A stretch of 64,000 nucleotides of DNA from an uncultured Candidatus Saccharibacteria bacterium (GCA_964428845.1 CAYRZH010000001.1:204445-268444), one strand, 5' to 3'; shown: positions 26,775 through 64,000, counted from the first letter of the stretch. The notes: a model not told the origin generated them from the letters alone. Made by a program: numbers and translations.

Positions 26775-27608
26775 ATGGAGACGATTTGCATTGCCTATGT
26801 CCCGGTATTACACGACGGATATAGAAAATTTTTTGAAAAATACAAAGGATCTACGCTCTATGTCTTTGGGCCAGAAATTATCTCTGAATTTACCCATCTT
26901 TCAAAAGAGATACGGCAGTTGGACCCCGCTCTTATCAAAAAGGCGATTGAAAGCTGGGGTATTTTTGAGGTCGTAAAGGTTTTGGGTAAGGAAGATCTGA
27001 AGACAATCGCGGAAACTACTGCACTACTCGTATTCCCTGACGAAGACGTGTCGAGAGATCTGGCCGCGAAATATTTTCCTGATAAGAAAACTGTATTTGA
27101 GCGTATTTTCCTGCGCTTAGACAAACACAGATCAATGGAAGAAAAGCCGGTCGAAGCAGACCAAAAAATATCTTCAGAACAATTTGATAGGGAAATTATC
27201 TCCAAACTGAAAGATGAAGCAAAAAAAAGTTCCGACTGGTGGAGAGGGATCGGAGCCGCCATTATAAAAAATGGGGAAATTATACTCATGACCCACAATA
27301 AGCATGTGCCATCGGAACATACCCCGTATGCTATGGGTGATCCAAGGAACAATTTTCATAAAGGAATAGGTATTGAATACTCATCTGTTCTTCATGCTGA
27401 AGCCGGACTTATTGCCGAGGCGGCGAGAAAGGGGATCTCTCTTGAGGGCGCCACCATGTATGCGACCACATTCCCTTGTCCTCCTTGTGCAAAACAGGTC
27501 GCTTATTCAGGTATAAAGAAACTTTATTATGCCGGTGGGTACGCTATTTTAGACCAGGAAGTAATTCTCAAAAGTCAGGGTGTGGAAATAATTTTTGTGC
27601 AGATGTAA
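26775..27608 (+). CDS. dCMP/cytidine deaminase-family protein with an N-terminal extra domain
   Basis: HAEAGLIAEAARKG ... PCPPCAKQV zinc-binding motifs. Confidence 0.7.
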   Translation: METICIAYVPVLHDGYRKFFEKYKGSTLYVFGPEIISEFTHLSKEIRQLDPALIKKAIESWGIFEVVKVLGKEDLKTIAETTALLVFPDEDVSRDLAAKYFPDKKTVFERIFLRLDKHRSMEEKPVEADQKISSEQFDREIISKLKDEAKKSSDWWRGIGAAIIKNGEIILMTHNKHVPSEHTPYAMGDPRNNFHKGIGIEYSSVLHAEAGLIAEAARKGISLEGATMYATTFPCPPCAKQVAYSGIKKLYYAGGYAILDQEVILKSQGVEIIFVQM

Positions 27609-27653
27609 AAGAAAACCCGTTCCTGTTGGAACGAGTTGTTATCAAGAATGGTG

Positions 27654-28232
27654 TCAGGTTCTGCCTGCTACAAGTGCTCGTTCTTCTGGGCTCAGGTCGC
27701 TTTCTTGGGTTCCCGTGCGGAGCTTCTCGAAGACTATTGCTCTGGCGAGACTCTCGGCCTCGGACTCGGCGCCCTTGAAGAATGGGGGTGCTACACGTCC
27801 ACTTCCGTCAGGTACCATCATGTGTACATGAAGATGCTCGATGCTGCCCGCGGATAGTGTCGCATCTCCATCTCGGATCAGAACTCCACAACTCTTGATC
27901 CCGTATTTGGTCAGGATTGTGAGGTAGGCCGTGATAGCGGACGACATTTCGTCTTGCCGAAGTTGCTGTATGCCAGTCACATGTCGTCTTGGTACAATCA
28001 AGAAATGTTTCGCCGTGTGGTCCTCGGGGGGTCTACAGGGCCAGGCCATGCAGTTAGGATCTTCAAAAATTATCTGATTGTAGTCTCTGTCGATTTGACA
28101 GAAAGGACAGCGTCCCGCCAACATCTCTTCGACCCCTCGACAATACTGTGCATATCTACGAGCTCGCGAAAGGCAAGCGAGCTTGTTTCGGTCTGTGATC
28201 CCCGAGATTACCAGGGCTGTTTGTCCATCCAC
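27654..28232 (-). CDS. HIT-family hydrolase/nucleotidyltransferase, G+C-rich xenolog
   Basis: GRCPFCQI and HLHVHMMVPDG histidine triad. Aligns with the adjacent AT-rich HIT gene. Confidence 0.7.
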   Translation of the reverse strand: MDGQTALVISGITDRNKLACLSRARRYAQYCRGVEEMLAGRCPFCQIDRDYNQIIFEDPNCMAWPCRPPEDHTAKHFLIVPRRHVTGIQQLRQDEMSSAITAYLTILTKYGIKSCGVLIRDGDATLSAGSIEHLHVHMMVPDGSGRVAPPFFKGAESEAESLARAIVFEKLRTGTQESDLSPEERALVAGRT

Positions 28233-28289
28233 CTCAAATCTCCTTTGTTAATGGTTCCGGGACCAATCTAGTCTATTATTAAAGAATTA

Positions 28290-28751
28290 TCAAGTCGTTA
28301 ATTTCTTGTAATTCTTCGGCTGGCCAAATTTAAATTTCCAGGCTTCACTTTCGCCAAGCGCCTTGAGGTCCGGCTCTATCAGATGGGCATGAATATGAAG
28401 GACACTACTGCCATAGTTTCCGTTTTCTGGGTCACTACCAAATCGGATTGCAATCCCGCCGCCCGGGATTTTTCTTTTTTTAGTCTGCTTAGCAAACATC
28501 TCTATTAGTTCTTTACCGGACTCTGGATCCATCTCCTCTATGTGCTCGATATGCGTCTTATAAATCGCCAGCAACTGGTGCTTTATTTTCTCATAAGGCC
28601 ACTGGTTGTCTGTAAGCAACCAAAATTTCCCCTCGTCGATGATTGGGTTTTTGTGATATTTGTCCAAGTTTTCGATACAAAATGGACAGTGGCCCTGTTT
28701 TTTTATTTCTTCCATTACTGCTTTCTGATCTTCACGCCTCACCGAATCCAT
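28290..28751 (-). CDS. HIT-family hydrolase/nucleotidyltransferase, native AT-rich copy
   Basis: GHCPFCIENL and HIHAHLIEP. Start set after the folA stop; the upstream ATG at 28799 would overlap folA. Confidence 0.6.
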   Translation of the reverse strand: MDSVRREDQKAVMEEIKKQGHCPFCIENLDKYHKNPIIDEGKFWLLTDNQWPYEKIKHQLLAIYKTHIEHIEEMDPESGKELIEMFAKQTKKRKIPGGGIAIRFGSDPENGNYGSSVLHIHAHLIEPDLKALGESEAWKFKFGQPKNYKKLTT

Positions 28752-28761
28752 ATTTATGTAT

Positions 28762-29253
28762 CTATTTTTTTCGTTCATATGTATAGAATGTACAGTCAAA
28801 CTTATTTTTCTCGTCTTTCTGGTGAAATTCCTCTGAAATTAAATTCCACTCATCTTTGTCGAATGTGAAGTAGACATCTCCGTCGGCAACTGTGTCGATA
28901 ACAGTAAGCATCAACCTATCCGTGAAAGGTAGAGCGAGCTTATATACTTCCGCTCCTCCGATTACGAAGACATCCTCTCCTTCTGCTATTTTTGCCGCTT
29001 CGTCCCACGAATGGATGACGACACAACCAGACGCCTGGAAGTCTTTTTGTGTTGTAAGGATTATATTTTTTCGCTCGGGGAGTGGCTTGCCAAGACTTTT
29101 TAGTATAGATTCGTAAGTCTTTCTTCCCATCAAAACAGTGTGCCCCTTTGTGGTTGAAGAAAAATGTTTTAAGTCCCTCGGTAAATGCCAAGGGATTTCA
29201 TTGGCGTGACCGATAACACCATTTTTGGAAGTGGCGACAATGATAGAAATCAT
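28762..29253 (-). CDS. folA: Dihydrofolate reductase
   Basis: MISIIVATSKNGVIGHANEIPWHLPRDLKHFSSTTKGHTVLMGRKTYESI. Confidence 0.85.
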   Translation of the reverse strand: MISIIVATSKNGVIGHANEIPWHLPRDLKHFSSTTKGHTVLMGRKTYESILKSLGKPLPERKNIILTTQKDFQASGCVVIHSWDEAAKIAEGEDVFVIGGAEVYKLALPFTDRLMLTVIDTVADGDVYFTFDKDEWNLISEEFHQKDEKNKFDCTFYTYERKK

Positions 29254-30161
29254 ATTGCGACAGGAATGGCTTTTATGCCCGGGTGAGGGTTGTAGTCGGA
29301 AAGTTCAAAGTCTTCTCTTCTGAAATCAAAAAGATTATTTTTGTTTGTATTTAGGGTAATGGTCGGCAGAGCTCTAGGTTCGCGCCCGAGCATCGTTTCT
29401 ACGGCGGGAATCTGGTCTACATAGATGTGAGCATCAGAAAAACTGTGAACATATTCGTAAGGAATCGTCTTGGTAATGTGGGCGATCATCAAGAGAAGAG
29501 ACGCATATTGGATCATGTTGGAGGGCACTCCCACCGGCACGTCTGCCGACCTCTGAATCATGTGGAGGGTTAATTTTCCATCAATAATTCTTAAATGAAC
29601 CCAGCCATGACATGGGCACACGACCACCTTTTGCTGCTTGCCTTTTCCTCTGCCCATATATTGGGGGATCCACGGCGTGACGAAATGTGTTCGAAGTTGG
29701 GGTTCTTCGATCATCTGTTCGATTATGTGCTTCCACTGGTTGAAAGAGGTTCCTTCGGAAGTCGGAAAATCATGAAATGCCGGACCGTAGGATCCCGGAC
29801 CAAGATCACCAGTCTCAAGGCCGCGTTTGGCACATTTTTCTGGAGTTGCCCAAGACTTCCACCAAAAGCACCCAAATTTTTCCAGCTCGTCGAGGGTTCG
29901 AGCTCCGTTTATGAAGCCGCATATTTCAGCAATGGCTTGCTGCCAGACAGTTACAGCCAAAGTCTCTGAAACTTTTGGATTCATATTCCGCTCCGTGATC
30001 ATCGGGAAACCGTTTTCAATCTTGAATCGCATCGGTTCTGGCCCGATAAGAGTGACGGCGTCGACGCCTTGCTGGCTAGGAGAACGGACACCTTTTGTAA
30101 GTATATCTCTAAGCAATCTCTGGTATTGACCGTCTGGTTGTCGTTCCGAATATGGTTTCAT
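29250..30161 (-). CDS. thyA: Thymidylate synthase (ThyA)
   Basis: CPCHGWVHL nucleophile region; 4-nt overlap with folA. Confidence 0.9.
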   Translation of the reverse strand: MKPYSERQPDGQYQRLLRDILTKGVRSPSQQGVDAVTLIGPEPMRFKIENGFPMITERNMNPKVSETLAVTVWQQAIAEICGFINGARTLDELEKFGCFWWKSWATPEKCAKRGLETGDLGPGSYGPAFHDFPTSEGTSFNQWKHIIEQMIEEPQLRTHFVTPWIPQYMGRGKGKQQKVVVCPCHGWVHLRIIDGKLTLHMIQRSADVPVGVPSNMIQYASLLLMIAHITKTIPYEYVHSFSDAHIYVDQIPAVETMLGREPRALPTITLNTNKNNLFDFRREDFELSDYNPHPGIKAIPVAI

Positions 30162-30252
30162 GGTCGCTAAATTCTAGCACTTTTATTTTATTTACGGCAG
30201 TAGTACCACCGACTTTTTTCTGATATCCTGAACTCAACTTAAATAAACATGA

Positions 30253-31428
30253 ATGAAAGACAAACAAATTGAAAAACTCATTCAGTCCGAGAAAAAGCGC
30301 CAGAAATCGGTAATAAACCTGATAGCTTCAGAGAATTATGTTTCGGATGATGTTCTGGAAGCACTTGGTTCTGAACTTACAAATAAATATGCTGAAGGAT
30401 ATTCGAGCCTCCGCTACTATGGGGGGAATGAGTTTTCGGACAAAATCGAGACTCTCTGCAAAGACCGGGCCCTAAAACTTTTTGGACTTTCAGAAAAAAA
30501 ATGGCACGTAAATGTCCAGCCGCTCTCCGGTTCACCGGCCAATCTCGCTGTCTACGCCGCCCTTGTTTCGCCCCATGGAAAAATAATGGGGATGAGCTTG
30601 GATCATGGTGGTCATCTGACGCATGGCCACAAAGTTTCTATTACTGGGAAATTTTGGAATCAGATTCCCTATGGAGTAGATAGGAGTAGTGAGATTATAA
30701 ACTATAAAGATCTTAAAAAAATAGCTGTAGAACACAAGCCAGATATTATTGTGGCTGGTTTTACTGCCTACCCGCGCACTATAGATTTCGATAAGTTTCG
30801 AGAGATAGCCGATGCTTGTGGCGCGTATCTTCTAGTAGATATGTCTCATATTGCTGGTCTCATTGCTGGAGGTGCGTACCCGAGTCCATTTCCATACGCT
30901 GATATTGTCACCACCACAGTACACAAGACCCTGCGCGGACCGCGAAGTGCCATGATTTTTGTCAGAAAGGATGAGCGAAACCTAGACAAACTTATCGACA
31001 AAGCAGTTTTCCCCGGTCTCCAAGGTGGGCCGCATTTGAATCAGATCGCCGCAGTCGCCGTGGCACTTAAAGAAGCAGATTCTCCAGCCTTTAAAAAATA
31101 CATCTCACAAGTTGTTAAAAATGCCAAAGTTCTTGCTAACGAGCTTATGCGCCTAGACTGGCGCGTGGTTTCTGGTGGTACGGACAGCCATCTTGTCTTG
31201 GTGGATACATGGATGGGAGGGAAGGGGATCCCGGGTAAAGAGGCTAGTAGTCGACTAGAGAAAGAGGGGATCATTGTAAACAAGAATACTATTCCTTTCG
31301 ACAGCCGTTCCCCGTTTGATCCTTCCGGGATTCGCTTGGGTACAGCTGCAGAAACTACCCGCGGGAAAAAAGAAAAAGATATGCTTGAGATTGCACGAAA
31401 GATCAATAAAATTTTGAGAAAGAAGTAA
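30253..31428 (+). CDS. glyA: Serine hydroxymethyltransferase
   Basis: ASENYVSDDVLEA...VTTTVHKTLRGPR PLP-Lys region. Confidence 0.9.
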   Translation: MKDKQIEKLIQSEKKRQKSVINLIASENYVSDDVLEALGSELTNKYAEGYSSLRYYGGNEFSDKIETLCKDRALKLFGLSEKKWHVNVQPLSGSPANLAVYAALVSPHGKIMGMSLDHGGHLTHGHKVSITGKFWNQIPYGVDRSSEIINYKDLKKIAVEHKPDIIVAGFTAYPRTIDFDKFREIADACGAYLLVDMSHIAGLIAGGAYPSPFPYADIVTTTVHKTLRGPRSAMIFVRKDERNLDKLIDKAVFPGLQGGPHLNQIAAVAVALKEADSPAFKKYISQVVKNAKVLANELMRLDWRVVSGGTDSHLVLVDTWMGGKGIPGKEASSRLEKEGIIVNKNTIPFDSRSPFDPSGIRLGTAAETTRGKKEKDMLEIARKINKILRKK

Positions 31429-31857
31429 ATGTCGACTATCCTAAAAATCATCCGGCTCGACAAAAGCATGAAAATGCCAGCTTACGCCTATCAGGATGAC
31501 GGAGCCTTCGATCTGTACTCGAGAGAGAGGATAACGATAAAACCTGGCGAACGTCTTTCTATCCCCACTGGTCTTAAAATGGAAATTCCTCCAGGATACG
31601 TTGGTTTTATTTGGGATAAAAGTGGGCTCTCACATAAGTTTGGTCTCAAAACTTTTGGTGGCGTGGCTGATGCCGGTTATCGCGGAGAGATTTTGGTTGG
31701 TATGATGAATTTGGGTACCGAACCATACACATTCGAGAAAAACCATAAGTTAGCGCAAATGACTATCCAACTCCGCGAGAAAGTGGACATCGTCGAGGTA
31801 GAGGAGCTCGGGGAATCTACTCGCGGTGAAGCTGGTTTTGGCAGTACGGGAAAGTAA
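31429..31857 (+). CDS. dut: dUTP diphosphatase (canonical, AT-rich)
   Basis: AGYRGEILV and RGEAGFGSTGK motifs. Confidence 0.85.
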   Translation: MSTILKIIRLDKSMKMPAYAYQDDGAFDLYSRERITIKPGERLSIPTGLKMEIPPGYVGFIWDKSGLSHKFGLKTFGGVADAGYRGEILVGMMNLGTEPYTFEKNHKLAQMTIQLREKVDIVEVEELGESTRGEAGFGSTGK

Positions 31858-31872
31858 CGGGGCACTGCAATT

Positions 31873-33600
31873 ATGTTCAATATTCAAGAGATAATTAAAA
31901 AAGAATTAGAGAAACTGGGACTCGATCTAGGGTCCGGCGTCCCTACCAGCGCCGAGACTTCTTCAAGTCTACTTGAACATCCAAAAACGCTTGAGCATGG
32001 CGACTATTCTTTTTTTATAAAAGACAAGGCGATAGATGTTTCGAAACTTCCAATCGACAAAATCAAACATAAATATATAGAAAAGGTAGTGGTGGTCGGA
32101 AAATTTATAAATTTCTATCTGTCGAAGCAGTTTTTTACCGATTCTCTTGAGGAAATTCTAGAAAAAAGCGATCAATTTGGGAGAAATAAAAATCTGGATG
32201 GAGAAAAAATAATTATAGAGTACACTGACCCCAATCCATTTAAAGAGTTCCACATCGGCCACCTCATGAGTAATGCCATTGGGGAGTCTCTTTCTCGTCT
32301 TCTCGAGTGGGGTGGGGCAAATGTAAAAAGAGCTTGTTACCAAGGAGATGTCGGACTCCATGTGGCCAAAGCTATTTGGGCCATGAAAAAACTCACTCTC
32401 GAAATGCCGGACATATCGGCGAACCTCTCCCAAAAGGTAGAATTTCTCGGCAAAGCCTATGTCTATGGGGCACGATCATATGAAGAAGACCAAAACTTTA
32501 AAAAAGAAATCGATGAGCTCAATAAGATTATCTACGAGAAGAGTAGTCTGGAAATAAACAAACTCTACGAATGGGGGAGAGAGGCCAGTCTCAAACATCT
32601 CGACTCTATATATAAAAAACTTGGAACTACTTTCGACTACTTTTTCTACGAGAGTGAGGCAGGCAAGGTCGGAATGTTTCTTGTTGAGGAACTTTTAAAA
32701 AAGGGAATACTAGCGAAGAGTGATGGGGCCGTGATATTTAAGGGTGAAGAGTATGGCTTGCACACCAGGGTTTTTGTTACATCTCAAGGCCTTCCGACAT
32801 ACGAGACAAAAGAGCTTGGTCTCGCCAAGATGAAATCTGATCGCGAGGACTTCGATCGTTCTATCGTTGTCACAGCAAGTGAGCAGGGCGACTATTTCAG
32901 AGTGGCTCTCAAAGTTCTTGGATTTGTCGATTCGACTGCTGAAAACAAAACTCGTCATGTTTCTCATGGGATGCTCCGGTTTGCCGAAGGCAAGATGTCT
33001 TCGAGGAAGGGCAATATTATTACTGGGGAATCTCTTGTCACTGACGTCGAGGAGCTTGTTTTAGAAAAAGTCCGAGACCGAGAACTTGGTGCTGAAGAAA
33101 AAGAAGAAATAAAAGAAGCGGTAGCGGTCGGAGCCATAAAATACTCTATTTTAAAACAGTCGCCAGGGCACGATATCATTTTCGATTTCAACAGATCTCT
33201 CTCGTTTGAAGGTGACTCGGGGCCATATTTGCAATACACCTACGCTCGAGCCAATTCTGTTTTGGAAAAAGCTAAAAAAGAAAATATAGAAGTGATTGGG
33301 GAAAGTGGTGCTGTGAGCAAGACTGCCCCTGAGGCGGCCGCCAAAACTACCGAAATCGAAAAATTACTTTATCGTTTCCCAGAAATAGTCTCGCGTGCTT
33401 TAAATGAGCAAGCTCCACAGTATATAACCACGTACTTGACCCAGATCGCTTCAGCATTCAACAACTTTTACGCCAACAACCAAATAGTCAATGTAAAAGA
33501 TGAAGAGTCTCCGCACAAAATCCTCCTGACAGAAGCTTTTAGGATTGTTATGAAGAATGGGCTCTATTTACTCGGCATTAGGGCACTAGATAAAATGTAG
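31873..33600 (+). CDS. argS: Arginyl-tRNA synthetase
   Basis: FKEFHIGHLMSNAIGESL HIGH region; 575 aa. Confidence 0.9.
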   Translation: MFNIQEIIKKELEKLGLDLGSGVPTSAETSSSLLEHPKTLEHGDYSFFIKDKAIDVSKLPIDKIKHKYIEKVVVVGKFINFYLSKQFFTDSLEEILEKSDQFGRNKNLDGEKIIIEYTDPNPFKEFHIGHLMSNAIGESLSRLLEWGGANVKRACYQGDVGLHVAKAIWAMKKLTLEMPDISANLSQKVEFLGKAYVYGARSYEEDQNFKKEIDELNKIIYEKSSLEINKLYEWGREASLKHLDSIYKKLGTTFDYFFYESEAGKVGMFLVEELLKKGILAKSDGAVIFKGEEYGLHTRVFVTSQGLPTYETKELGLAKMKSDREDFDRSIVVTASEQGDYFRVALKVLGFVDSTAENKTRHVSHGMLRFAEGKMSSRKGNIITGESLVTDVEELVLEKVRDRELGAEEKEEIKEAVAVGAIKYSILKQSPGHDIIFDFNRSLSFEGDSGPYLQYTYARANSVLEKAKKENIEVIGESGAVSKTAPEAAAKTTEIEKLLYRFPEIVSRALNEQAPQYITTYLTQIASAFNNFYANNQIVNVKDEESPHKILLTEAFRIVMKNGLYLLGIRALDKM

Positions 33601-33672
33601 TTCTAAAGGTGAGTTATCGAGAGCCTCTCTTTTTGCATAAATGTCTAAAAATGCTAGTATTTTCCTTATATT

Positions 33673-36600
33673 ATGGCCGAAGAGACTAAAAAAAATGTGG
33701 GGAAAAGTGAAGTTGCGCTTGCGGAAGAAAAAATTCTAAGGTTTTGGAAAGAGAACAAAATTTTTGAGAAAACTCTAGCGAAAAAATCGCCTGGCGGTGA
33801 GTATGTCTTCTACGATGGCCCACCATTTGCCACTGGTCTTCCTCATTATGGTCATATTTTGGTGAGTGCTATCAAAGATACGGTGCCGAGGTACTGGACC
33901 ATGAAAGGCAAACATGTAGGGCGACGTTGGGGTTGGGATTGTCATGGTCTGCCTATCGAGAATATTGTCGAAAAGGATTTAAAAATTTCTGGGAAAAAGG
34001 AAATAGAAGCTCTCGGTGTAGAAAAATTTAACGAATACGCTAAAAGTAAAGTGCTTGATTATGTGAACCAATGGAAAGAAACGGTCGAGCGTATCGGCCG
34101 TTGGGTGGATTTTGATGGTTCATACAAGACGATGGACAACACCTTCATCGAGTCTGTCTGGTGGGCACTCAAAGAGATTTGGGATAAAGATTTAATTTAT
34201 GAAGGTACCCGAGTATTGCCATACTGCCCGCGCTGCGAGACTCCTATCGCCAACTCCGAGATCGCCATGGACAACAGCTATAAAGATATCACCGACATTT
34301 CGGTGTATGTGAAGCTCGAGCTCGTGCCTGAAGAAAAAACGGGTCAAGAAAGTGAACTTAAAACATATCTCCTGGCCTGGACGACTACTCCCTGGACCTT
34401 GCCAGGCAATACTGCCGCGGCAGTAAACAAAGACTTAATGTATGTAAAAGCAAAAGTCACGCCCGCTGCTGGTGGTGGAGCCACTCCATACTTCCTAATT
34501 TTTGCTAAAGAAAAGCTCGCCGCTATTTCTAGCCTGGCAAAGGACGCGAAGCTTGAGGTTGTTTCCGAGATTAAGGGCAGTGATATCGTCGGCAAACCCT
34601 ACAAACCACTTCTAGAATATTTTTCTGGAAAAAATATTAAGAATAAAGAAAATGGCTGGAAGGTTTATGCGGCGCCATATGTCACAGCCGAGACCGGAAC
34701 AGGCATCGTGCATCTCGCGCCTGGATACGGCGAAGAGGATATGGAGTTGGCAAAAGATAATAACATTCCATTTGTGATGCATGTTGGTGCCGATGGTAAA
34801 TTTGTTTCTGAAGTGGGAGATGGCCTCGCTGGGCTCAAGGTAAAACCGAAACCGACTCCAGAAGATCCACAAGGACACCAGTCTTCAGATATCTTGATTA
34901 TCAAAATTTTAGCCGCTCGTGGTGCGCTCTTTGCCAAAGAAAAGATTGTTCATTCGTACCCACACTGTCACCGTTGCGAAACCCCCCTCTACTATTTTGC
35001 TATTCCAGCTTGGTTTATAAAAATCAGCGAAGTAAAAAAACGCATGATTGCCTTAAACGAGAAGATAAACTGGGTTCCCGAACACTTGAAACACGGCAGA
35101 TTTCTCAAGGGACTTGAGGGTGCGCCCGATTGGAATATTTCTAGAAACCGTTATTGGGCTTCGCCTCTGCCTATTTGGAAATGTGACAAATGTCCAGAAA
35201 CTACTTTCCTCGGTTCACTCGAGGATATAAAAAAACATGCTCCAGCCAAAAACAAATACTTCGTGATGCGTCATGGAGAGGCGGAGAACAATCTTCTTAA
35301 GGTTTTATCTTCTGACCCAAAGAACAATCATCGACTTACTGATAAAGGAAGAAACGATGTGGCTGTGTCGGCTCGGCTTTTAAGAAAGAAAAAAATCGAT
35401 GTTATCTACGCATCATCTTTTATCCGTGCCAAAGAGACCGCACAGATCGTGGCCGAGGCACTCGGTCTTTCTAGCGACAAAATCGTCGTTGACGATCGAT
35501 TGGTAGAAATAAACTTCGGTGAGCTTAGTGGTAAGCCGATCAAAGCCTATCCAGAGTTTTACGGCTACTCATATAAAGAGGCTTTTGAAAAGTCGATGCC
35601 TGGCGGTGAGAATCTTTCTCTCGTGAAAAAGAGAGCGGGTGATTTTATTTCCGAAATTGAGGAGAAGGAGAATGGTAAAAATATTCTCATCGTCAGTCAC
35701 GAAACTCCGATCTGGATGCTCGAGGCGGCTGCCGCGGGTGCCACCATAGCCCTGTCCGTAAAGATCCGCGAAGCGAAAGATGATGTCATCGGAACCGCCG
35801 AGTTGCGCACGCTCGATTTTTCACCTATCCCTCACAATAAAGATTACGAGCTTGATTTCCATCGGCCATATATCGATAAGATTATTTTCCCTTGCGTTTG
35901 CGGAGAGGGACAGATGCGGCGTATTCCCGAAGTGATCGACTGCTGGTTCGAATCTGGTTCTATGCCGTTTGCCCAAAGCCACTATCCCTTCGAAAATAAA
36001 AGAAATTTCGATAAGAATTTCCCGGCGCAGTTTATCGTCGAATATATTGCCCAAACGCGAACCTGGTTTTACTATACCCACGTTTTGTCGGCAATTCTTT
36101 TTAAAGATATTTCATTTGAAAACGTCATTGCTCATGGGACGGTGCTTGCGGAAGATGGACAGAAAATGTCTAAATCTAAGGGAAATTTCCCAGACCCATC
36201 TCATGTTTTCGACAAATACGGTGTGGACGCATTGCGATTCTATCTTCTGTCATCGCCCCTGATGAAATCCGAAGATCTTAGTTTTTCTGAAAAGGGAGTC
36301 GATGAGGTATACAAGAAAATAATTTTGCGTCTGCGAAACACCCTATCTTTCTATGAGATGTATAAAGGGAACCACACTCCGACGCATTCTCCAAGAGCCG
36401 AGACCATCCTTGATCGATGGATTCTCTCGCGTCTAGCCGAGGTCAATCAACAAGTCGGGCGGGCCATGGATTCATACGAGATCGACCAGGCCCTGCGCCC
36501 AATCGATGGATTTATCGAGGATCTGTCGGTCTGGTTTTTGAGACGCTCGCGTGAAAGGCTAAAAAGCGATGATGCCACAGAAAAAAATTCTGCACTTGAT

Positions 36601-37227
36601 ATCTTCCACTCCGTTCTACTAGAACTCTCAAAAATTATCGCACCATTCACTCCTTTTATTTCCGAAGATTTGTACAAGAGACTTGGCGGGGCCTTAGAAA
36701 GTGTTCACCTCGAAAGCTGGCCAAAGGCAGGGCATACAGATCAGGGTGTCATCGAGGAAATGGCAGAGGTTCGGAGAATAGTAGGCTTCGGACTCGAAGC
36801 ACGCGCCAAGGCGGGCATAAAGGTGCGTCAGCCGCTCTCGGAGCTTAAAGTTAGAAACTCCAAAATTAGAGACAAAGAAGAACTTCTAGGTCTTCTCAAA
36901 GATGAAATAAACGTTAAACAAATTTCTTTTGACGAGAAAATTGCAGACGAAGTTTCTTTAGATACAAATATTACCGAGACTCTCAAGGAAGAAGGGGATT
37001 TGCGAGAGTTTATTCGATTTGTACAAGATCTTAGAAAAAAGAAAGGCCTCAAGGCAGGAGAAGGGGCTACACTAGAGATGCATACCGACGAGTCAGGAAA
37101 AAGATTTGTTACTAAATTTGAAAAGGAAATATTAGGAAGTGCCTTTATAAAAAATATTTCTCACTTAGAAAGTTTGGAGGGCGAAACTTTCGAAATGAAT
37201 GGTACTAAATTTGTACTCTCTTTTTAG
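33673..37227 (+). CDS. ileS: Isoleucyl-tRNA synthetase with an in-frame ~200-aa histidine-phosphatase (phosphoglycerate-mutase-like) domain inserted in the zinc-knuckle loop
   Basis: HYGH and KMSKSKGN class I motifs. Insert YFVMRHGEAENN ... LTDKGRNDVAVSARLL ... ILIVSHETPI lies between IWKCDKCPETTF and FPCVCGEGQMRRIPEVIDCWFESGSMP. Confidence 0.9.
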   Translation: MAEETKKNVGKSEVALAEEKILRFWKENKIFEKTLAKKSPGGEYVFYDGPPFATGLPHYGHILVSAIKDTVPRYWTMKGKHVGRRWGWDCHGLPIENIVEKDLKISGKKEIEALGVEKFNEYAKSKVLDYVNQWKETVERIGRWVDFDGSYKTMDNTFIESVWWALKEIWDKDLIYEGTRVLPYCPRCETPIANSEIAMDNSYKDITDISVYVKLELVPEEKTGQESELKTYLLAWTTTPWTLPGNTAAAVNKDLMYVKAKVTPAAGGGATPYFLIFAKEKLAAISSLAKDAKLEVVSEIKGSDIVGKPYKPLLEYFSGKNIKNKENGWKVYAAPYVTAETGTGIVHLAPGYGEEDMELAKDNNIPFVMHVGADGKFVSEVGDGLAGLKVKPKPTPEDPQGHQSSDILIIKILAARGALFAKEKIVHSYPHCHRCETPLYYFAIPAWFIKISEVKKRMIALNEKINWVPEHLKHGRFLKGLEGAPDWNISRNRYWASPLPIWKCDKCPETTFLGSLEDIKKHAPAKNKYFVMRHGEAENNLLKVLSSDPKNNHRLTDKGRNDVAVSARLLRKKKIDVIYASSFIRAKETAQIVAEALGLSSDKIVVDDRLVEINFGELSGKPIKAYPEFYGYSYKEAFEKSMPGGENLSLVKKRAGDFISEIEEKENGKNILIVSHETPIWMLEAAAAGATIALSVKIREAKDDVIGTAELRTLDFSPIPHNKDYELDFHRPYIDKIIFPCVCGEGQMRRIPEVIDCWFESGSMPFAQSHYPFENKRNFDKNFPAQFIVEYIAQTRTWFYYTHVLSAILFKDISFENVIAHGTVLAEDGQKMSKSKGNFPDPSHVFDKYGVDALRFYLLSSPLMKSEDLSFSEKGVDEVYKKIILRLRNTLSFYEMYKGNHTPTHSPRAETILDRWILSRLAEVNQQVGRAMDSYEIDQALRPIDGFIEDLSVWFLRRSRERLKSDDATEKNSALDIFHSVLLELSKIIAPFTPFISEDLYKRLGGALESVHLESWPKAGHTDQGVIEEMAEVRRIVGFGLEARAKAGIKVRQPLSELKVRNSKIRDKEELLGLLKDEINVKQISFDEKIADEVSLDTNITETLKEEGDLREFIRFVQDLRKKKGLKAGEGATLEMHTDESGKRFVTKFEKEILGSAFIKNISHLESLEGETFEMNGTKFVLSF

Positions 37228-37228
37228 T

Positions 37229-37825
37229 ATGTTCTATCATACCCACAATACAGAAGCTTTCGTTCTGACTGCATTGCCTTCAGGAGAATCTAGCAAATAC
37301 GTATATCTATTTACAAAAGACCTCGGCCTGGTCGGAGCGCATGCTCAAGGAGTGAGAGATGTGAAGTCGAAGTTGCGTTATGCCCTCGACAACCTATCTT
37401 ACTCGAGAGTTTCTTTGGTGAGAGGTAAAAACTCCTGGAGACTCACCAACGCTGTGCCCCATAAGAATTTCTTTCTCGAGTTTCGCGATGACCAACCCAA
37501 GCTCATCTTATGTGCCAATACTCTTGCCCTTATAAAAAAGCTTGTTGCCGGCGAAGAAAAAAACCACAAACTTTTCGAAATTCTCGACAGTGGCTTTTCT
37601 TTCTTAGAGAGAGAAAGGCTTTCGTCTGACAACATAAAAAACGTCGAGGCGATCTTTATGTTGAGAATTCTAGATAACCTCGGCTATCTAGGTGACGAGG
37701 CCGTGCTCGAGCAGTTTGTCTTGGGCGACGCTTGGAGCCATGAAATGCTCGTAGAGATGGAGAGGGAACGACGAAATGCCGTTTTTGCTATAAATAAATC
37801 TCTCGAAGCGAGCCATATGATATAA
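37229..37825 (+). CDS. recO: DNA repair protein RecO-like (short form)
   Basis: N-terminal OB fold: EAFVLTALPSGESSKYVYLFTKDLGLVGAHAQGVRDVKSK...YSRVSLV. Confidence 0.55.
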   Translation: MFYHTHNTEAFVLTALPSGESSKYVYLFTKDLGLVGAHAQGVRDVKSKLRYALDNLSYSRVSLVRGKNSWRLTNAVPHKNFFLEFRDDQPKLILCANTLALIKKLVAGEEKNHKLFEILDSGFSFLERERLSSDNIKNVEAIFMLRILDNLGYLGDEAVLEQFVLGDAWSHEMLVEMERERRNAVFAINKSLEASHMI

Positions 37826-37833
37826 TTTTTGTC

Positions 37834-39771
37834 ATGGCGTTAAACTCTAAAGGCGGAAAGATAGAAAAGCTTGAAAAAGATCTTTATTCACGAGAGGCCC
37901 CACAAATAAGCGGTTTTGAGCGTGAACCTCTCAAGCCTCAAAGGAAAGGTAACAGTGCTGGTTGGAGTGAAAACGAGGACTTGGCCAAGGAACTTGCCAC
38001 CGAATACAGCGAGCCAAAGAAAACCTCTTTTTTCACAAAAGTTTTCATTGCTTCCATAATATTTTTCGTGGTGGCTGCGGGTATCGCCGCCTATATCCTT
38101 CTCGGTGGTTTCAACGTAATTTCTTCAAAAAATGTAGATATTCTCGTCGAAGGACCGATCGCCGCGGCGGCAGGGGAAGAGTTGGTCCTCGATATAACTG
38201 TCTCCAACAACAATAACGTCCTTCTCGAGCAAGTGGAACTTTTTGTAGAGTACCCCGAAGGTACCAGGATGTCGGAAGATCTAACAAAAGAACTTGTCCG
38301 AGACAAGATATTGTTTGACGATATACCATCAGGGAAGACGGGAACAAAAACGATCAAAGCTGTTCTTTTTGGCGAAAAAGATAGCGCCAAAGATATAAAG
38401 ATGACTCTTGACTATAAAGCTCGTGGAGCCAACGCCTCATTTTCTAAACAAAAAACCTATAGCATTGTTATAAAGTCGTCACCGATTCTTATGGAAGTGG
38501 CGTACCCCAAGGAAGTCAACGCTGGCCAGGAGATAACCTTCACCCTAAACATAACCTCAAATTCTGCGGCTCTTGTCCGTAATCTTATCCTCCGAGCAGA
38601 GTATCCGTTTGGCTTTAGTTTTACGGGTTCAGTTCCAAAGACGAGCTCTGATAATAATGTCTGGCGTGTTGGCGATCTCAATCCCAAAGAGAAACGAACA
38701 ATAGTCATAAAGGGAAAAATAGAGGGGCAAAATGAGGAAGAGAGGACTTTTAGATTCAACACCGGGATTGCCAAAGAGAATGACGAAAACCAAATTGGGG
38801 TTGATTTCATCTCTCTTTCCCAATCAATTTTAATTAAAAAACCATTCATCGATCTTGCTGTAAAGCTAAATCAAAGCAACGAAAAAGAATACTTCACCAA
38901 GATAGGTGAGCACGTGAGAGGGGAAATTTCTTGGTCCAACAGCTTACCGATTACGATCAACGACATCGAAGTTTTGGTCAAACTTTCTGGAAGTGCCTTG
39001 GACCGCAATACAGTAAGGCCGAGCCGCGGAGGTTTTTACCGATCGGCAGACAACACTATCACCTGGGACAAAAACAGTCTTCCAGAGCTTCGCTCTATCG
39101 GTCCAAACGATACAAATTCTGTCGGTTTCGAATTTAGTTCTATTCCGAGTTCACAGAATCTCATTGCCACTGGCAGGAATCTAGAAATGAATGCAAATAT
39201 TTCTGTCAAAGGAACTCGCATAACCGAAGATGGTGTCTCGCAGACAGTGACCACTTCATTTGATAGGAAGGTCAAGATACTAACCAATCTCTCGCTCAAT
39301 GGCCGCACTCTTTATTCGACAGGACCGTTTAGAAATACGGGGCCTGTGCCGCCCAAGGCTGAAGTTCCAACCTCGTATACTATCGTCTGGACGCTCTCCA
39401 ACACTTTCAATGATGTCACCGGGGCATCCGTCAGTGCGACACTGCCGCCATACGTCAAGTGGCTAAACGTCTTTAGTCCTACGAATTCGAACATTGTTTA
39501 TAACGCAGAGAATCGCACTATTGTTTGGAACAGTGGGGAAGTGAAGGCCGGTAGTGGTTTTAGTTCGCCTGCACAGGAAGTTTCTTTCCAGATTTCTCTT
39601 GAGCCGAGCTTAAGCCAAGTCGGAACAGTGCCGGCTTTGGTAGAAAATATTCAGTTTACAGGCACAGATCGATTTACTGGTAAAGTTATCGGTGAGTCGA
39701 AGTTGCCTCTCACGACCAGAGCAAGTACGGACCCTACCTACAATATCGGCAATGAGACGGTTGTGAGATAG
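37834..39771 (+). CDS. Large membrane-anchored extracellular protein with repeated beta-sandwich (CARDB/DUF11-like) modules
   Basis: N-terminal TM (FFTKVFIASIIFFVVAAGIAAYILL) then repeated ~100-aa beta-rich units. Typical CPR surface protein. Confidence 0.45.
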   Translation: MALNSKGGKIEKLEKDLYSREAPQISGFEREPLKPQRKGNSAGWSENEDLAKELATEYSEPKKTSFFTKVFIASIIFFVVAAGIAAYILLGGFNVISSKNVDILVEGPIAAAAGEELVLDITVSNNNNVLLEQVELFVEYPEGTRMSEDLTKELVRDKILFDDIPSGKTGTKTIKAVLFGEKDSAKDIKMTLDYKARGANASFSKQKTYSIVIKSSPILMEVAYPKEVNAGQEITFTLNITSNSAALVRNLILRAEYPFGFSFTGSVPKTSSDNNVWRVGDLNPKEKRTIVIKGKIEGQNEEERTFRFNTGIAKENDENQIGVDFISLSQSILIKKPFIDLAVKLNQSNEKEYFTKIGEHVRGEISWSNSLPITINDIEVLVKLSGSALDRNTVRPSRGGFYRSADNTITWDKNSLPELRSIGPNDTNSVGFEFSSIPSSQNLIATGRNLEMNANISVKGTRITEDGVSQTVTTSFDRKVKILTNLSLNGRTLYSTGPFRNTGPVPPKAEVPTSYTIVWTLSNTFNDVTGASVSATLPPYVKWLNVFSPTNSNIVYNAENRTIVWNSGEVKAGSGFSSPAQEVSFQISLEPSLSQVGTVPALVENIQFTGTDRFTGKVIGESKLPLTTRASTDPTYNIGNETVVR

Positions 39772-39816
39772 GGCAGCGAGCGGTATAGTAGACACCATTA
39801 AACATTCTAAATATCC

Positions 39817-41226
39817 ATGGAAGACAAGAAGAAAAAGGGAAAGGCTGGCAGCGTCAGTGAAGGAAGACCAGACTCCGGCGGCGAAAATAGCGGAAAAATG
39901 GAAAAAATAATCTCTCTTGCTAAAAGGCGCGGCTTTATCTACCAAGGTTCGGAAATATACGGTGGCTTGGCCGGTACCTGGGACTACGGACCACTGGGCG
40001 TGGCACTCAAGAATAATATAAAGAATTTGTGGTGGAAAAGGTTCGTGAGCGACCGGGAGGATATGTATGGAGTGGATACCGCTATCCTCATGAACCAGAA
40101 AGTTTGGAAGGCTACCAAGCATACAGAGGTTTTCGCAGATCCGATGGTGGAGTGTAAGAAATGCAAGCACCAGTTCAGGGGTGATCAGGTAGAAGGGAAT
40201 AAGTGTCAGGACTGCGGTGGGATGCTCGGAGAAGTGAAGACGTTTAACACAATGTTCAAAACCCACGTCGGCGCGTCAGAAGATGCTGCCGCCACTTCCT
40301 ACCTTCGCCCCGAGACCGCACAGGGCATGTTTGTAAATTTTAAAAATGTCGTCGACTCATTTCACCCGAAGCTTCCGTTTGGCCTCGCACAAACAGGGAA
40401 GGCTTTTAGGAACGAAATAGCTCCACGCGACTTTCTCTTTCGAGCCCGCGAGTTTGAGCAAATGGAAATAGAATATTTTATCCGAGCGGGCGAATGGGAA
40501 AAATATTTTGAGTACTGGAAAACTGAAATGATCTCATGGTTTGAGCAACTTGGAGTCGCTCGTGGCACTGTGCACGAGCTTGAGGTGCCAGCAGAAGATC
40601 GGGCGCACTACTCGGAACGCACTATTGATTTTGAATTCGACTTCCCGTTTGGAAAAAAAGAACTAGCCGGCCTTGCCTACAGGACCGACTTCGATCTTAA
40701 AAACCATGCTTCGGCTAGTGGTGTGGACCTGTCGTATTTTGATGAGGAGACGAAGGAGAGATTTACTCCTCATGTTATTGAACCTACATTTGGTCTCGAC
40801 AGACTTATTCTTGCCATTTTCTCGAGTGCTTACAGTGAAGATGACTTGGGTGGAGAAAAAGCAGATATGAAGGAAGAAGTGGCCGACAAAATTGAGAAAG
40901 CCGAGAAACGTGTTTTTCTGAAACTCGCACCCGCAGTCGCCCCTGTGCGTGTTGCAGTTTTTCCTTTACTTAAAAATAAGCCGCAACTAGTCGAGAAGGC
41001 TCGCGAAGTTTACGGTATGCTCAAAAAAGAAATTTCAGGAGCCGTAGTTTTTGACGACAACGGCAACATCGGCAAGCGCTACAGAAGGCAGGATGAGATC
41101 GGCACGCCGCATTGTGTCACTATAGATTTTGATACTTTAGAAAATGACACGGTCACACTCCGCGATCGTGATACGGGGAAGCAGGAGAGGGTGGAGGTAA
41201 AAGAGCTCAAAAAAGCTTTACTTTAG
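39817..41226 (+). CDS. glyQS: Glycyl-tRNA synthetase (class II, dimeric alpha2 type)
   Basis: FRNEIAPRDFLFRAREFEQMEIEYF motif 2; 469 aa. Confidence 0.9.
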   Translation: MEDKKKKGKAGSVSEGRPDSGGENSGKMEKIISLAKRRGFIYQGSEIYGGLAGTWDYGPLGVALKNNIKNLWWKRFVSDREDMYGVDTAILMNQKVWKATKHTEVFADPMVECKKCKHQFRGDQVEGNKCQDCGGMLGEVKTFNTMFKTHVGASEDAAATSYLRPETAQGMFVNFKNVVDSFHPKLPFGLAQTGKAFRNEIAPRDFLFRAREFEQMEIEYFIRAGEWEKYFEYWKTEMISWFEQLGVARGTVHELEVPAEDRAHYSERTIDFEFDFPFGKKELAGLAYRTDFDLKNHASASGVDLSYFDEETKERFTPHVIEPTFGLDRLILAIFSSAYSEDDLGGEKADMKEEVADKIEKAEKRVFLKLAPAVAPVRVAVFPLLKNKPQLVEKAREVYGMLKKEISGAVVFDDNGNIGKRYRRQDEIGTPHCVTIDFDTLENDTVTLRDRDTGKQERVEVKELKKALL

Positions 41227-41252
41227 GGCATATTTCTTCTGCAGCGCTACTA

Positions 41253-41282
41253 TTGACTCGAGCACCGTTTGTATGATATAAT
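41253..41282 (+). promoter_or_regulatory. Promoter TTGACT-18-(TG)TATAAT of P3, followed by a conserved structured leader (stem GCACAG..CTGTGC, then GCTTC-TTCG-GAAGC just upstream of the SD)
   Basis: Promoter plus leader are ~85% identical to 42880-42990 upstream of P4. Confidence 0.45.
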
Positions 41283-41366
41283 TTCGCACAGAAAGAGTAT
41301 GGCACTGTGCTGTATTCTAGTTCTCTGAACCGCTTCTTCGGAAGCACAGCAAGAAAGGAAAATGTC

Positions 41367-42071
41367 ATGAGCGCGAAACGCGTGTGTGACATGAGCCCAA
41401 GAAACGTGTGTGACATGAGCTGTGGGGCGATGCATGAGTTTGCATTGGCCCTCGACAAGGCCGGTTTTACCGCTAGTCTTGTACAACAGGTCATCAACTC
41501 GGGTGGCAACAAGCTCGCGAGAGCAATGCGTGCTGCTCTCACAACAGGAGTCGTGGTGGATGACCGGTTCGAACTGGTCGACTCCTTCGATGTCGTTGTG
41601 CCCGACGGCTACGACCACGCAACCCGTTTGGGGACGTTCTGGAGAGAACACGGCGAAGAGTTCGATTGCTACAACCCCTCCATCACCGACGAGAACTACA
41701 GCGGAGCGACAAACAAACTCGTCCCTGGTCGGGGGTTCAGGGTGAAGGTTTTCCAGATCAGGGGGGTCGTGTCATCCGACGATTGCCTGGCTCACCTGCG
41801 TTCGCAGAAGGCTGTACTTGTTGGCGCCCAAGGTGCGAGTCTTGCCTACGAACAGGGCAAGAACATGCTACCAGTCAACCGGTGGTCAGTCTCCTTCGAT
41901 GATAAGGATGCGCTTTTGGAAGACCCCAGTGGCTGGCATTGGGTGCCGGACGTGCTCCGCCACTCGGACGGTAGCTTCAGGTTCAATCTTGGTCAGTTCG
42001 AGTTAAACTGGAACGACGGCTTCTGCCTTCTCTGCTTCTGCGGCTTTGAGCCCGAGTCCTCTGGCGCCTAG
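41367..42071 (+). CDS. Uncharacterized protein, family member P3 (G+C-rich cassette gene)
   Basis: FDVVVPDGYDHAT...YNPSITDENYSGATNKLVPGRGFRVKVFQIRGVVSSDDCLAHL...AVLVGAQGASL...RWSVSFDDKDAL...FCLLCF. Tandem 16-nt duplication near the N-terminus (VCDMS x2). Confidence 0.5.
   Translation: MSAKRVCDMSPRNVCDMSCGAMHEFALALDKAGFTASLVQQVINSGGNKLARAMRAALTTGVVVDDRFELVDSFDVVVPDGYDHATRLGTFWREHGEEFDCYNPSITDENYSGATNKLVPGRGFRVKVFQIRGVVSSDDCLAHLRSQKAVLVGAQGASLAYEQGKNMLPVNRWSVSFDDKDALLEDPSGWHWVPDVLRHSDGSFRFNLGQFELNWNDGFCLLCFCGFEPESSGA

Positions 42072-62004: not shown

Positions 62005-64000
<1,996 letters not shown>

Follow-up and report, generated by a model that had tools for sequence, protein, structure and literature searches.

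Why does an isoleucyl-tRNA synthetase (IleRS) carry an entire phosphatase domain within its catalytic core, and what could this domain do there? The question is raised by the ileS gene located on the plus strand of a 64,000-nucleotide stretch of DNA from an uncultured Candidatus Saccharibacteria bacterium (GCA_964428845.1, CAYRZH010000001.1:204445-268444), the whole of which is called the window hereafter. Aminoacyl-tRNA synthetases are among the most conserved enzymes and new catalytic domains in their cores are rare; the classic case is the CP1 editing domain, which revealed a whole layer of translational quality control. We describe here what appears to be a second active hydrolase, set around the IleRS synthetic site on what seems to have been more than one occasion, within a large group of ultra-small bacteria: a domain of the histidine phosphatase superfamily, nested in the zinc-knuckle hairpin of a type-2 IleRS.

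Architecture of the ileS product

The gene is one uninterrupted ATG-to-stop open reading frame (ORF) of 1184 aa (33673..37227, plus strand), which the original prediction had read as an IleRS with HIGH and KMSKS motifs and type-2 flanks, and this assignment holds. The product scores 844.3 bits with TIGR00392, the NCBIfam equivalog model of ileS (cut-off 621.4), the insert notwithstanding, and the Pfam family tRNA-synt_1 is recovered in two separated stretches (E=2.8e-127) together with Anticodon_1 and a C-terminal DUF5915. The class I motifs are HYGH (aa 58-61, nt 33844-33855), whose G60 and H61 are invariant among homologues, and KMSKS (aa 831-835, nt 36163-36177), while the two motifs of the CP1 editing domain, WTTTPWT (aa 236-242, nt 34378-34398) and GTGIVH (aa 342-347, nt 34696-34713), are both conserved. 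The type is indicated by the C-terminal DUF5915 and by a similarity to IleRS2 (E ~1e-207) far above that to IleRS1 (E ~1e-72). IleRS2, yeast IleRS and Thermus thermophilus IleRS are the best matches both in the PDB and with Foldseek: the full-length AlphaFold2 model (mean predicted local distance difference test, pLDDT, 89.8; predicted template modelling score, pTM, 0.83) gives template modelling scores of 0.83-0.93, normalised to the target, with 8c9d (IleRS2), 8wnd (yeast) and 1ile (T. thermophilus). The HIGH and KMSKS motifs, CP1, the zinc-knuckle hairpin, the anticodon-binding domain and the type-2 C-terminal domain are all shared with these structures (8C8V/8C9D, 1ILE and 8WND; E=1.8e-207 to 8c8v).

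The part of the synthetase that precedes the insert comprises the first Rossmann half with CP1 and the opening stretch of the second half, as far as the first strand and helix of the zinc knuckle. The part that follows it comprises the rest of the catalytic domain, with invariant residues that include W758, E790, Q794 and W798 in the homologue alignment, then the SC-fold, the anticodon-binding domain and DUF5915. Judged from its sequence, the ileS product is a complete type-2 IleRS with every signature of a working synthetase and editor. It does not belong to the mupirocin-resistance families MupA and MupB (NF000257 and NF000258), for which the scores of 659 and 709 bits, against a cut-off of 1900, reflect general IleRS2 similarity only.

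The point of insertion can be placed precisely. Residues 17-524 align with residues 13-479 of the P. megaterium IleRS2 (8c8v) and residues 721-1090 with 480-853, so that about 196 aa are cleanly inserted between two adjacent residues of an insert-free IleRS. Alignment with insert-free relatives from the candidate phyla radiation (CPR) puts the edges after the helix GSLEDIKK (around aa 523) and before PHNKDYELDFHRPYID (around aa 721). The phosphatase domain, of about 197 aa, sits at the tip of the zinc-knuckle hairpin, between CDKC (504-507) and CVC (741-743), which is where the original prediction had located it; its edges are refined here to nt 35242-35832. The host hairpin, in the second half of the Rossmann-fold catalytic domain, is probably the CP3 insertion. 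According to the alignment offset to 1ILE (query residue 523 corresponding to chain residue 480), C504 and C507 are equivalent to C461 and C464 of the T. thermophilus enzyme, and C741 and C743 to its Cys502 and Cys504, residues which we take to be ligands of one of its two zinc sites. Type-2 IleRS structures have about 10-40 residues between these two Cys pairs, where the window hairpin holds a 197-aa enzyme domain, and no such domain is present in any solved IleRS structure matched in the PDB or by Foldseek. In the full-length AlphaFold model, pLDDT is 93-95 across both linkers of the insert, which suggests that the phosphatase is docked rigidly rather than loosely tethered.

The insert itself is recognised by Pfam as His_Phos_1 (aa 530-693), with 113.1 bits against a gathering threshold of 21.7 and E=1.7e-32 in a scan of the whole protein (E=7.7e-34 when the insert is scanned by itself). 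It contains the RHGE (533-536) and VSHE (674-677) motifs, has the alpha/beta fold of the superfamily (PF00300) and, modelled alone, reaches a pLDDT of 94.4. The LTDKG segment, which had been put forward as a specific hallmark, turned out to be ordinary family conservation (L555, T556 and G559). With a profile of the insert family, PhoE (E=4.5e-28) and then PspA are the top matches among solved structures, and R533, H534, N540, R585, E612 and H676 line up with the catalytic residues of PhoE. The insert is thus classified as a short branch-1 histidine phosphatase of the PhoE/PspA type, with a full predicted catalytic set. Identity to PhoE of Geobacillus stearothermophilus (1EBB/1H2E) and to PspA of Hydrogenobacter (4IJ5) is nevertheless only 26%, and no NCBIfam equivalog cut-off is reached for PspA (NF045917, 67.1 bits against 350), CobC (TIGR03162, 66.7 against 162.9), dPGM (NF038349, TIGR01258 and others; 89.5 bits against 225 for dPGM_arch, and lower scores for the other dPGM models) or GpmB. 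The resemblance to PspA and CobC is at the level of fold and active site only. PhoE and PspA also differ from the window phosphatase in being free-standing, metabolic enzymes, whereas the latter is nested in a synthetase or linked to it in an operon, and strongly basic in its free form.

Conservation was assessed on the 120 best full-length homologues (Parcubacteria/Paceibacteria, in independent assemblies from NCBI, ENA, JGI and Logan), which are 1124-1292 aa long and 50-62% identical to the window protein. Mean identity is 41% in the insert, against 66% and 55% in the N- and C-terminal parts of IleRS. In spite of this faster divergence, R533, H534, R585, E646 and R654 are invariant in 120 of 120 sequences, E612 is a glutamate in 119 and an aspartate in one, H676 is a histidine in 119 and N540 is kept in 116. 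Catalytic residues that are invariant or nearly so in a faster-diverging domain are the signature of an enzyme kept active by selection, and the phosphatase is therefore probably catalytically active.

All of these 120 homologues have the same PF00133 plus PF00300 architecture, and an NCBI contig of 269,714 bp encodes a protein identical to that of the window. The GC content of the insert (0.43-0.47) matches that of its flanks, no repeats flank the insert and, consistent with the original prediction that the insert is not an intein, Pfam returned no intein (Hint) or homing-endonuclease family for the ileS product at E<=0.01, and nothing spoke against its argument from the residues at the junctions. 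A frameshift or a chimeric assembly is excluded by the continuous frame, the matching GC content, the identical record and the architecture shared by all the homologues. A domain search, the distribution of the insert across Patescibacteria IleRS and the confidence of both AlphaFold models bear out its reading as a phosphatase. Two kinds of shorter sequence were set aside. Apparently split ileS genes, encoding proteins of 723-766 aa that start near residue 452, are explained by truncation at a contig end (L087) or by a frameshift (L088); in the latter, an insert-bearing ileS (L088:4775-6210) is frameshifted near residues 404-409 and called as two genes, through a sequencing error or a genuine disruption. 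Short matches on long contigs (P0007, P0018, P0027 and others) have out-of-frame junk at their ends and are frameshifted fragments, not separate genes.

Free-standing counterparts and insertion sites

The architecture had been described as unfamiliar, and it is indeed absent from characterised enzymes; it is not rare, however, since well over a hundred public Patescibacteria IleRS carry the insert, some of them annotated as "isoleucine--tRNA ligase" or "class I tRNA ligase family protein". No description of an IleRS combined with a histidine phosphatase was found in the literature searched, and a targeted text search of a 2026 preprint on IleRS domain evolution gave no mention of it. The two parts are each of a well-known family, additional domains in synthetases are nothing new, and the sequences have for years been publicly available under generic names. 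Used by itself in an exhaustive search, the insert recovered 1056 proteins at E<=1e-10. About 157 of the best representatives were classified, of which 98 have IleRS segments and about 50 are phosphatase-only; the latter include some IleRS fragments and many genuine proteins of about 190 aa that begin with MKLNNKYYILRHG and end with GELRELN.

Genes for these free-standing proteins were first noticed between argS and ileS on L001, L002 and L004. We then scanned species-representative genomes with the tight standalone clade as query, which gave 79 loci (80 classified when the earlier ones are included), mostly labelled Staskawiczbacteria, Nealsonbacteria or generic Patescibacteria. The phosphatase gene lies upstream of an insert-free ileS, on the same strand, in 67 of the 80 loci and within 200 nt of it in 53 of those 67; in five others it is inside ileS, at the site used in the window. 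The remaining eight comprise several loci truncated by a contig end just past the phosphatase, one with ileS on the opposite strand (L064), and two without argS or ileS nearby (L077 and L078). The argS gene precedes the phosphatase gene nearly everywhere, with a spacer of 3-9 nt in most loci, and the phosphatase gene ends just before ileS. In L004 (4184-7646), for example, a gene for a phosphatase of 195 aa is wedged between argS and an ileS that encodes 955 aa, and stops 8 nt before the latter, and the same arrangement is seen in L005-L081 (e.g. L022, L032 and L053). Downstream of ileS, a recO homologue is found in most related loci. More distant relatives of the phosphatase (L089 and L064) are still beside ileS. 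The genomic linkage of this phosphatase clade to ileS is thus tight and nearly universal.

The window follows this order too, with argS, a phosphatase-bearing ileS and recO, and the fused domain is the counterpart of the free-standing gene found between argS and ileS in sister lineages. Because this argS...recO context is that of the insert-free orthologues, it argues that the window ileS is the housekeeping IleRS copy of the cell. A conserved third gene between phosphatase and ileS was considered and rejected: in 14 loci, gaps of 0.4-2.2 kb hold unrelated accessory genes (Fic-like, Nudix-like, radical-SAM-like, CYTH-like and others, by sequence) or no ORF. The synthetases of some loci have divergent signatures. 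In the insert-free IleRS of L004, L022 and L032 and the fused one of L057, HIGH is replaced by a motif of the G-x-H-H type (GVHH, AVHH, GAHH or GIHH), which we take to be the swapped signature motif reported for mupirocin-hyper-resistant IleRS2, and the three insert-free enzymes also show EMHKS where KMSKS is expected. From these motifs, the standalone phosphatase stands upstream of two very divergent types of ileS, about 35% identical to each other.

Free and fused copies differ in charge. The standalone phosphatases (loci L005-L081) have a mean net charge of +7.1 per 100 aa and a pI near 9.5, while the IleRS and ArgRS (arginyl-tRNA synthetase) of the same loci are near neutral (+0.5 to +2.5 per 100 aa); the charge of the standalone proteins shows no correlation with GC content. 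The five copies that were fused recently have stayed basic, and the anciently fused clade of the window type averages -2.5 per 100 aa, like its host IleRS. Among the positions that are basic only in the free-standing copies, two flank the catalytic glutamate. A basic charge would fit a free enzyme that seeks a polyanion or a polyanion-bound partner, and a tethered enzyme could afford to lose it.

The phosphatase is found at four distinct internal sites of IleRS, with up to three copies per protein. Site A is that of the window; A2 lies just after the second Cys pair; B follows SGSMPYA; and C is located after the SC-fold helix and ahead of the anticodon-binding domain. In the catalytic core, A, A2 and B flank the conserved PEVIDCWFESGSMP segment, which in T. 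thermophilus IleRS carries a tryptophan that lines the isoleucine pocket. Two IleRS, P0312 (L092:7001-11260) and P0336, have a normal short zinc knuckle and two phosphatase domains, at B and C, and P0276 has three copies, at A2, B and C. P0312 is represented by six near-identical members on contigs of up to 1.06 Mb and lies in an unrelated neighbourhood, without argS upstream (POR, PurA, DAHP synthase and an SLH-domain protein), which looks more metabolically capable than expected of Parcubacteria. R533, H534, R585, E612 and H676 are intact in every copy examined, whether at sites B and C, fused to the two other partners described below, or standalone.

Rough neighbour-joining trees, one built on the phosphatase and one on the IleRS core, agree in placing the site-A fusions at three separate positions: a single large clade holds the fused genes of the window type, the fusions of L055, L057 and L058 nest among split-type lineages, and those of L073 and L074 make up a third group. 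This pattern suggests at least three independent fusions at the same loop. Where it is joined to IleRS the phosphatase is always internal. Neither an ArgRS-phosphatase fusion nor an N-terminal phosphatase-IleRS fusion occurs among the 333 phosphatase-containing proteins collected, a set biased towards relatives of the window sequence; such end-to-end fusions should be the easiest to form, since with this gene order and these tiny spacers they need only the loss of a stop codon.

Other partners were also observed. Four clusters, P0327 (L086:977-2140), P0389, P0390 and P0391, consist of TsaC (threonylcarbamoyl-AMP synthase) joined to a phosphatase of this clade, with 52-65% identity. A valyl-tRNA synthetase-like (ValRS-like) protein, P0245 (L084:366-3851), which may be a pseudogene or a sequence error, has four His_Phos_1 domains inserted in its catalytic domain, an architecture that holds at the level of domains. 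On a JGI contig of 11.3 kb, the IleRS P0378 combines a histidine phosphatase (680-854) with a GNAT acetyltransferase (935-1063) and contains in its N-terminal half (aa 340-461) an in-frame domain that resembles the Y1 tyrosine transposases of the IS200/REP type. An IleRS fragment on a Logan contig of 14.3 kb (P0063) has a site-A phosphatase together with a serine hydrolase (alpha/beta-hydrolase) just before RRIPEVLDVW; the first Cys pair of its zinc knuckle is lost, and the second probably too. The zinc-knuckle loop looks like a hot spot for the accretion of enzyme domains.

Possible roles of the phosphatase domain

By homology to the superfamily, R533, R585, N540 and H676 would hold the terminal phosphate of the substrate, H534 would attack it with formation of a phospho-histidine intermediate, and E612 would protonate the leaving group and then activate a water molecule. 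The phosphatase appears to have entered ileS on several occasions, each time in a loop around the synthetic site, and a phosphorylated ligand visiting that site would be hydrolysed in cis. The explanation that we favour, at about even odds, is that the protein is a bifunctional enzyme, in which the phosphatase is an accessory hydrolase of IleRS acting on such a ligand. The data above establish the architecture, the intact active site, its distribution, the linkage of the genes and the presence of several insertion sites; that the domain is active, that it works with IleRS and what it acts on are inferred. Coupling is favoured because (i) nesting is apparently repeated and position-specific while the easier end-to-end fusions are absent, (ii) several intact copies can occur per enzyme and one lineage is independent of the argS neighbourhood, and (iii) AlphaFold predicts a rigid docking, to which the charge pattern is added. 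The two other partners, ValRS and TsaC, are likewise enzymes of tRNA biology that form adenylates.

Several observations weigh against this proposal. The trees have no support values, so that the independence of the fusions is suggestive rather than shown. A few standalone relatives are encoded away from ileS (L077 and L090), and a gene order conserved among related orders could be simple inheritance. The ValRS-like case comes from a single contig of low coverage, which may have been assembled twice and in which an in-frame TAA interrupts the fourth phosphatase copy. The TsaC fusions of CPR bacteria are promiscuous: the partner is most often Ogt/MGMT, and TruB, 2H phosphoesterase, GNAT, Nudix and methylpurine glycosylase domains are found as well. 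Fusion alone is therefore weak evidence of a shared function, and the TsaC-phosphatase fusion, which is real and had been considered as a strong functional clue, was given a lower weight, since TsaC joins so many unrelated domains in these bacteria. Finally, nothing that we know of would make dephosphorylation necessary for tRNA-Ile in particular.

As first-choice substrate of an accessory hydrolase we would name a tRNA acceptor end bearing a 2'/3'-phosphate or a pyrophosphate, with the phosphatase serving, in analogy to CP1, as a site of repair or quality control; our second choice would be a nucleotide product, either AMP or pyrophosphate (PPi). In its most specific form, this proposal makes of the phosphatase a third IleRS catalytic site, one that acts on tRNA: it would clear the acceptor end of a 2'/3'-phosphate or pyrophosphate and so allow tRNA-Ile that is damaged or blocked by a toxin to be charged again, with the basic free version acting in trans in sister lineages. 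The tRNA end is favoured because it best explains the basic free-standing form and because of the analogy with CP1, but in so specific a form we put the idea forward tentatively and hold it to be unlikely. If it is true, the histidine phosphatase superfamily would gain what is to our knowledge its first member directed at nucleic acids, and tRNA repair a new kind, built into a synthetase.

The analogy with CP1 goes a certain way. CP1 is likewise a hydrolytic insert in the Rossmann fold, and acts on the tRNA 3' end swung over from the synthetic site. It is, however, an ancient ester hydrolase of unrelated fold, universal in IleRS, ValRS and leucyl-tRNA synthetase (LeuRS), unlike the window phosphatase, which is lineage-specific, was acquired recently and apparently repeatedly, and occupies other loops. 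Other precedents can be named. The NCBIfam family NF040702 (ileS_w_GNAT) also describes an IleRS with an extra enzyme domain, a sign that such variants are already acknowledged by curators, and P0378 combines His_Phos with GNAT; but the domain of NF040702 is a different one, and the window protein is not a member (294 bits against a cut-off of 1999). The RNase H/acid phosphatase of the Rv2228c type (NF005567; the window protein scores 84 bits against a cut-off of 326), the mycobacterial MutT1 (Nudix plus RHG) and PFK-2/FBPase-2 likewise join an RHG domain to an enzyme of nucleic acids or nucleotides. These are all end-to-end fusions, whereas the domain of the window is nested within the catalytic domain of its partner.

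The strongest rival explanation supposes that the domain is a housekeeping small-molecule phosphomonoesterase, similar to PhoE, PspA or CobC, directed at a metabolite such as phosphoserine, a sugar phosphate or a nucleotide and mechanistically unconnected to aminoacylation, which hitch-hikes with IleRS as a neighbouring gene of a streamlined genome, co-expressed and received by a tolerant loop. We consider it possible, but on the whole improbable. Its closest structures are indeed metabolite phosphatases, although no equivalog cut-off is reached for any such enzyme; the window-type insert is not basic, and a gene order can be inherited without selection. The readiness of CPR proteins to fuse (e.g. 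TsaC-Ogt) agrees with it, as do the serine hydrolase in the same IleRS loop in P0063 and the GNAT domain further along P0378, which suggest a permissive insertion hot spot. It leaves unexplained, however, why the easy fusions of the phosphatase to ArgRS or to the N-terminus of IleRS are absent while difficult internal insertions occur at four sites, apparently several times. Co-expression hardly accounts for an IleRS with two or three copies, all catalytically intact; the P0312 lineage has its inserts without the argS-phosphatase-ileS neighbourhood; and a strong basic charge sets the standalone enzyme apart from its neighbours.

A role in product removal appears less probable again, and we think it rather improbable. 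Hydrolysis of AMP, or of the terminal phosphate of PPi, would pull activation forward or recycle phosphate in organisms of minimal metabolism. The three partners found, IleRS, ValRS and TsaC, all use ATP to form an acyl-AMP and PPi, with AMP as the last product, a shared chemistry that this role explains best. The synthetic site has sites A, A2 and B around it, and nucleotide-like phosphomonoesterases, CobC for one, are among the nearest relatives of the domain. AMP is one of the many substrates of PhoE. Small products diffuse freely, however, so that tethering and precise placement would gain little kinetically, AMP hydrolysis would be wasteful and the strongly basic standalone proteins are left unexplained. 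No branch-1 precedent for the hydrolysis of PPi could be confirmed: MutT1 had been considered as one for the cleavage of a phosphoanhydride by an RHG domain, but the MutT1 paper did not support this and the idea was dropped; no usable literature was found on pyrophosphatase in Parcubacteria.

We hold it to be very improbable that the domain is a protein-directed or regulatory phosphatase, which would remove an inhibitory phosphorylation from the synthetase (e.g. by HipA-like toxin kinases) or sense a phospho-metabolite through its phospho-histidine. The superfamily does include protein phosphatases of the same fold (SixA, PGAM5 and Sts), and tethering in cis as well as several copies would suit self-protection. 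Toxin kinases phosphorylate the class I synthetases GltX and TrpS near KMSKS. Lastly, the probability of an artefact or a selfish element (an assembly or frameshift fusion, an intein or mobile insertion, or a decayed pseudo-domain) is negligible: the architecture is unusual and some database relatives are indeed frameshifted or truncated fragments, but against this stand the continuous frame, uniform composition, identical independent record and unanimous homologues reported above, the lack of Hint or endonuclease families (Pfam) and of flanking repeats, and an insert which is itself a conserved enzyme domain, with catalytic residues invariant or nearly so and confident models of both domain and whole protein.

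Coupling of an accessory phosphatase to IleRS is directly testable with recombinant proteins, since natural fused and split versions both exist. If it is coupled to aminoacylation, the phosphatase would represent an unrecognised step in CPR bacteria, be it tRNA-end repair, product removal or regulation. If it is not, the family would offer a clean natural case of multi-site domain nesting in an essential enzyme, informative on the tolerance of class I synthetases to insertion.

Feature coordinates and neighbouring genes

The coordinates of ileS, of its parts and predicted catalytic residues, and of the two adjacent genes are collected in Table 1.

Table 1. Features of the ileS locus, in window positions.
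Feature	Position (nt)	Strand	Basis and remarks
argS, arginyl-tRNA synthetase	31873..33600	+	Pfam tRNA-synt_1d, DALR_1, Arg_tRNA_synt_N; directly upstream of ileS
ileS, predicted type-2 IleRS with nested histidine phosphatase, 1184 aa + stop	33673..37227	+	ORF, TIGR00392, AlphaFold2, Foldseek
IleRS N-terminal part, aa 1-523	33673..35241	+	aligned to 8c8v residues 13-479
First Cys pair of the zinc knuckle, C504-D-K-C507	35182..35193	+	motif location
Nested histidine phosphatase domain, aa 524-720	35242..35832	+	Pfam His_Phos_1 at aa 530-693 (nt 35260-35751)
RHG motif, R533-H534-G535; H534 is the predicted phospho-accepting nucleophile	35269..35277	+	aligned to the RHG of PhoE
R585, second phosphate-binding arginine (predicted)	35425..35427	+	aligned to the SxxxRAxxTA segment of PhoE
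E612, predicted general acid/base	35506..35508	+	aligned to the Glu of LREIxLGxWEG in PhoE
H676 (VSHE), second active-site histidine (predicted)	35698..35700	+	aligned to the His of LIVTHG in PhoE
IleRS C-terminal part, aa 721-1184	35833..37224	+	aligned to 8c8v residues 480-853 and 938-1024; Pfam Anticodon_1, DUF5915
Second Cys pair of the zinc knuckle, C741-V-C743	35893..35901	+	insert-free relatives align here
recO-like gene	37199..37825	+	Pfam RecO_N, RecO_C; overlaps the 3' end of ileS by 29 nt

The surrounding stretch (26775-42071) is dense in housekeeping genes of nucleotide metabolism and translation: a deaminase, folA and thyA (on the minus strand), glyA, dut, argS, ileS and recO. Two more products of this stretch are a DUF11 protein of 645 aa, apparently with a hydrophobic segment at its N-terminus, and a class II synthetase that has an HGTP anticodon domain and looks GlyRS-like by sequence.

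Further downstream, a 23S rRNA gene starts at 62005 and is cut by the end of the window. Within the window no 16S rRNA gene lies upstream of it, so that the rRNA genes may be unlinked. The 1996 nt available (62005-64000) cover model positions 1-1612, and the approximately 380 extra nt are probably an insertion or an intron.

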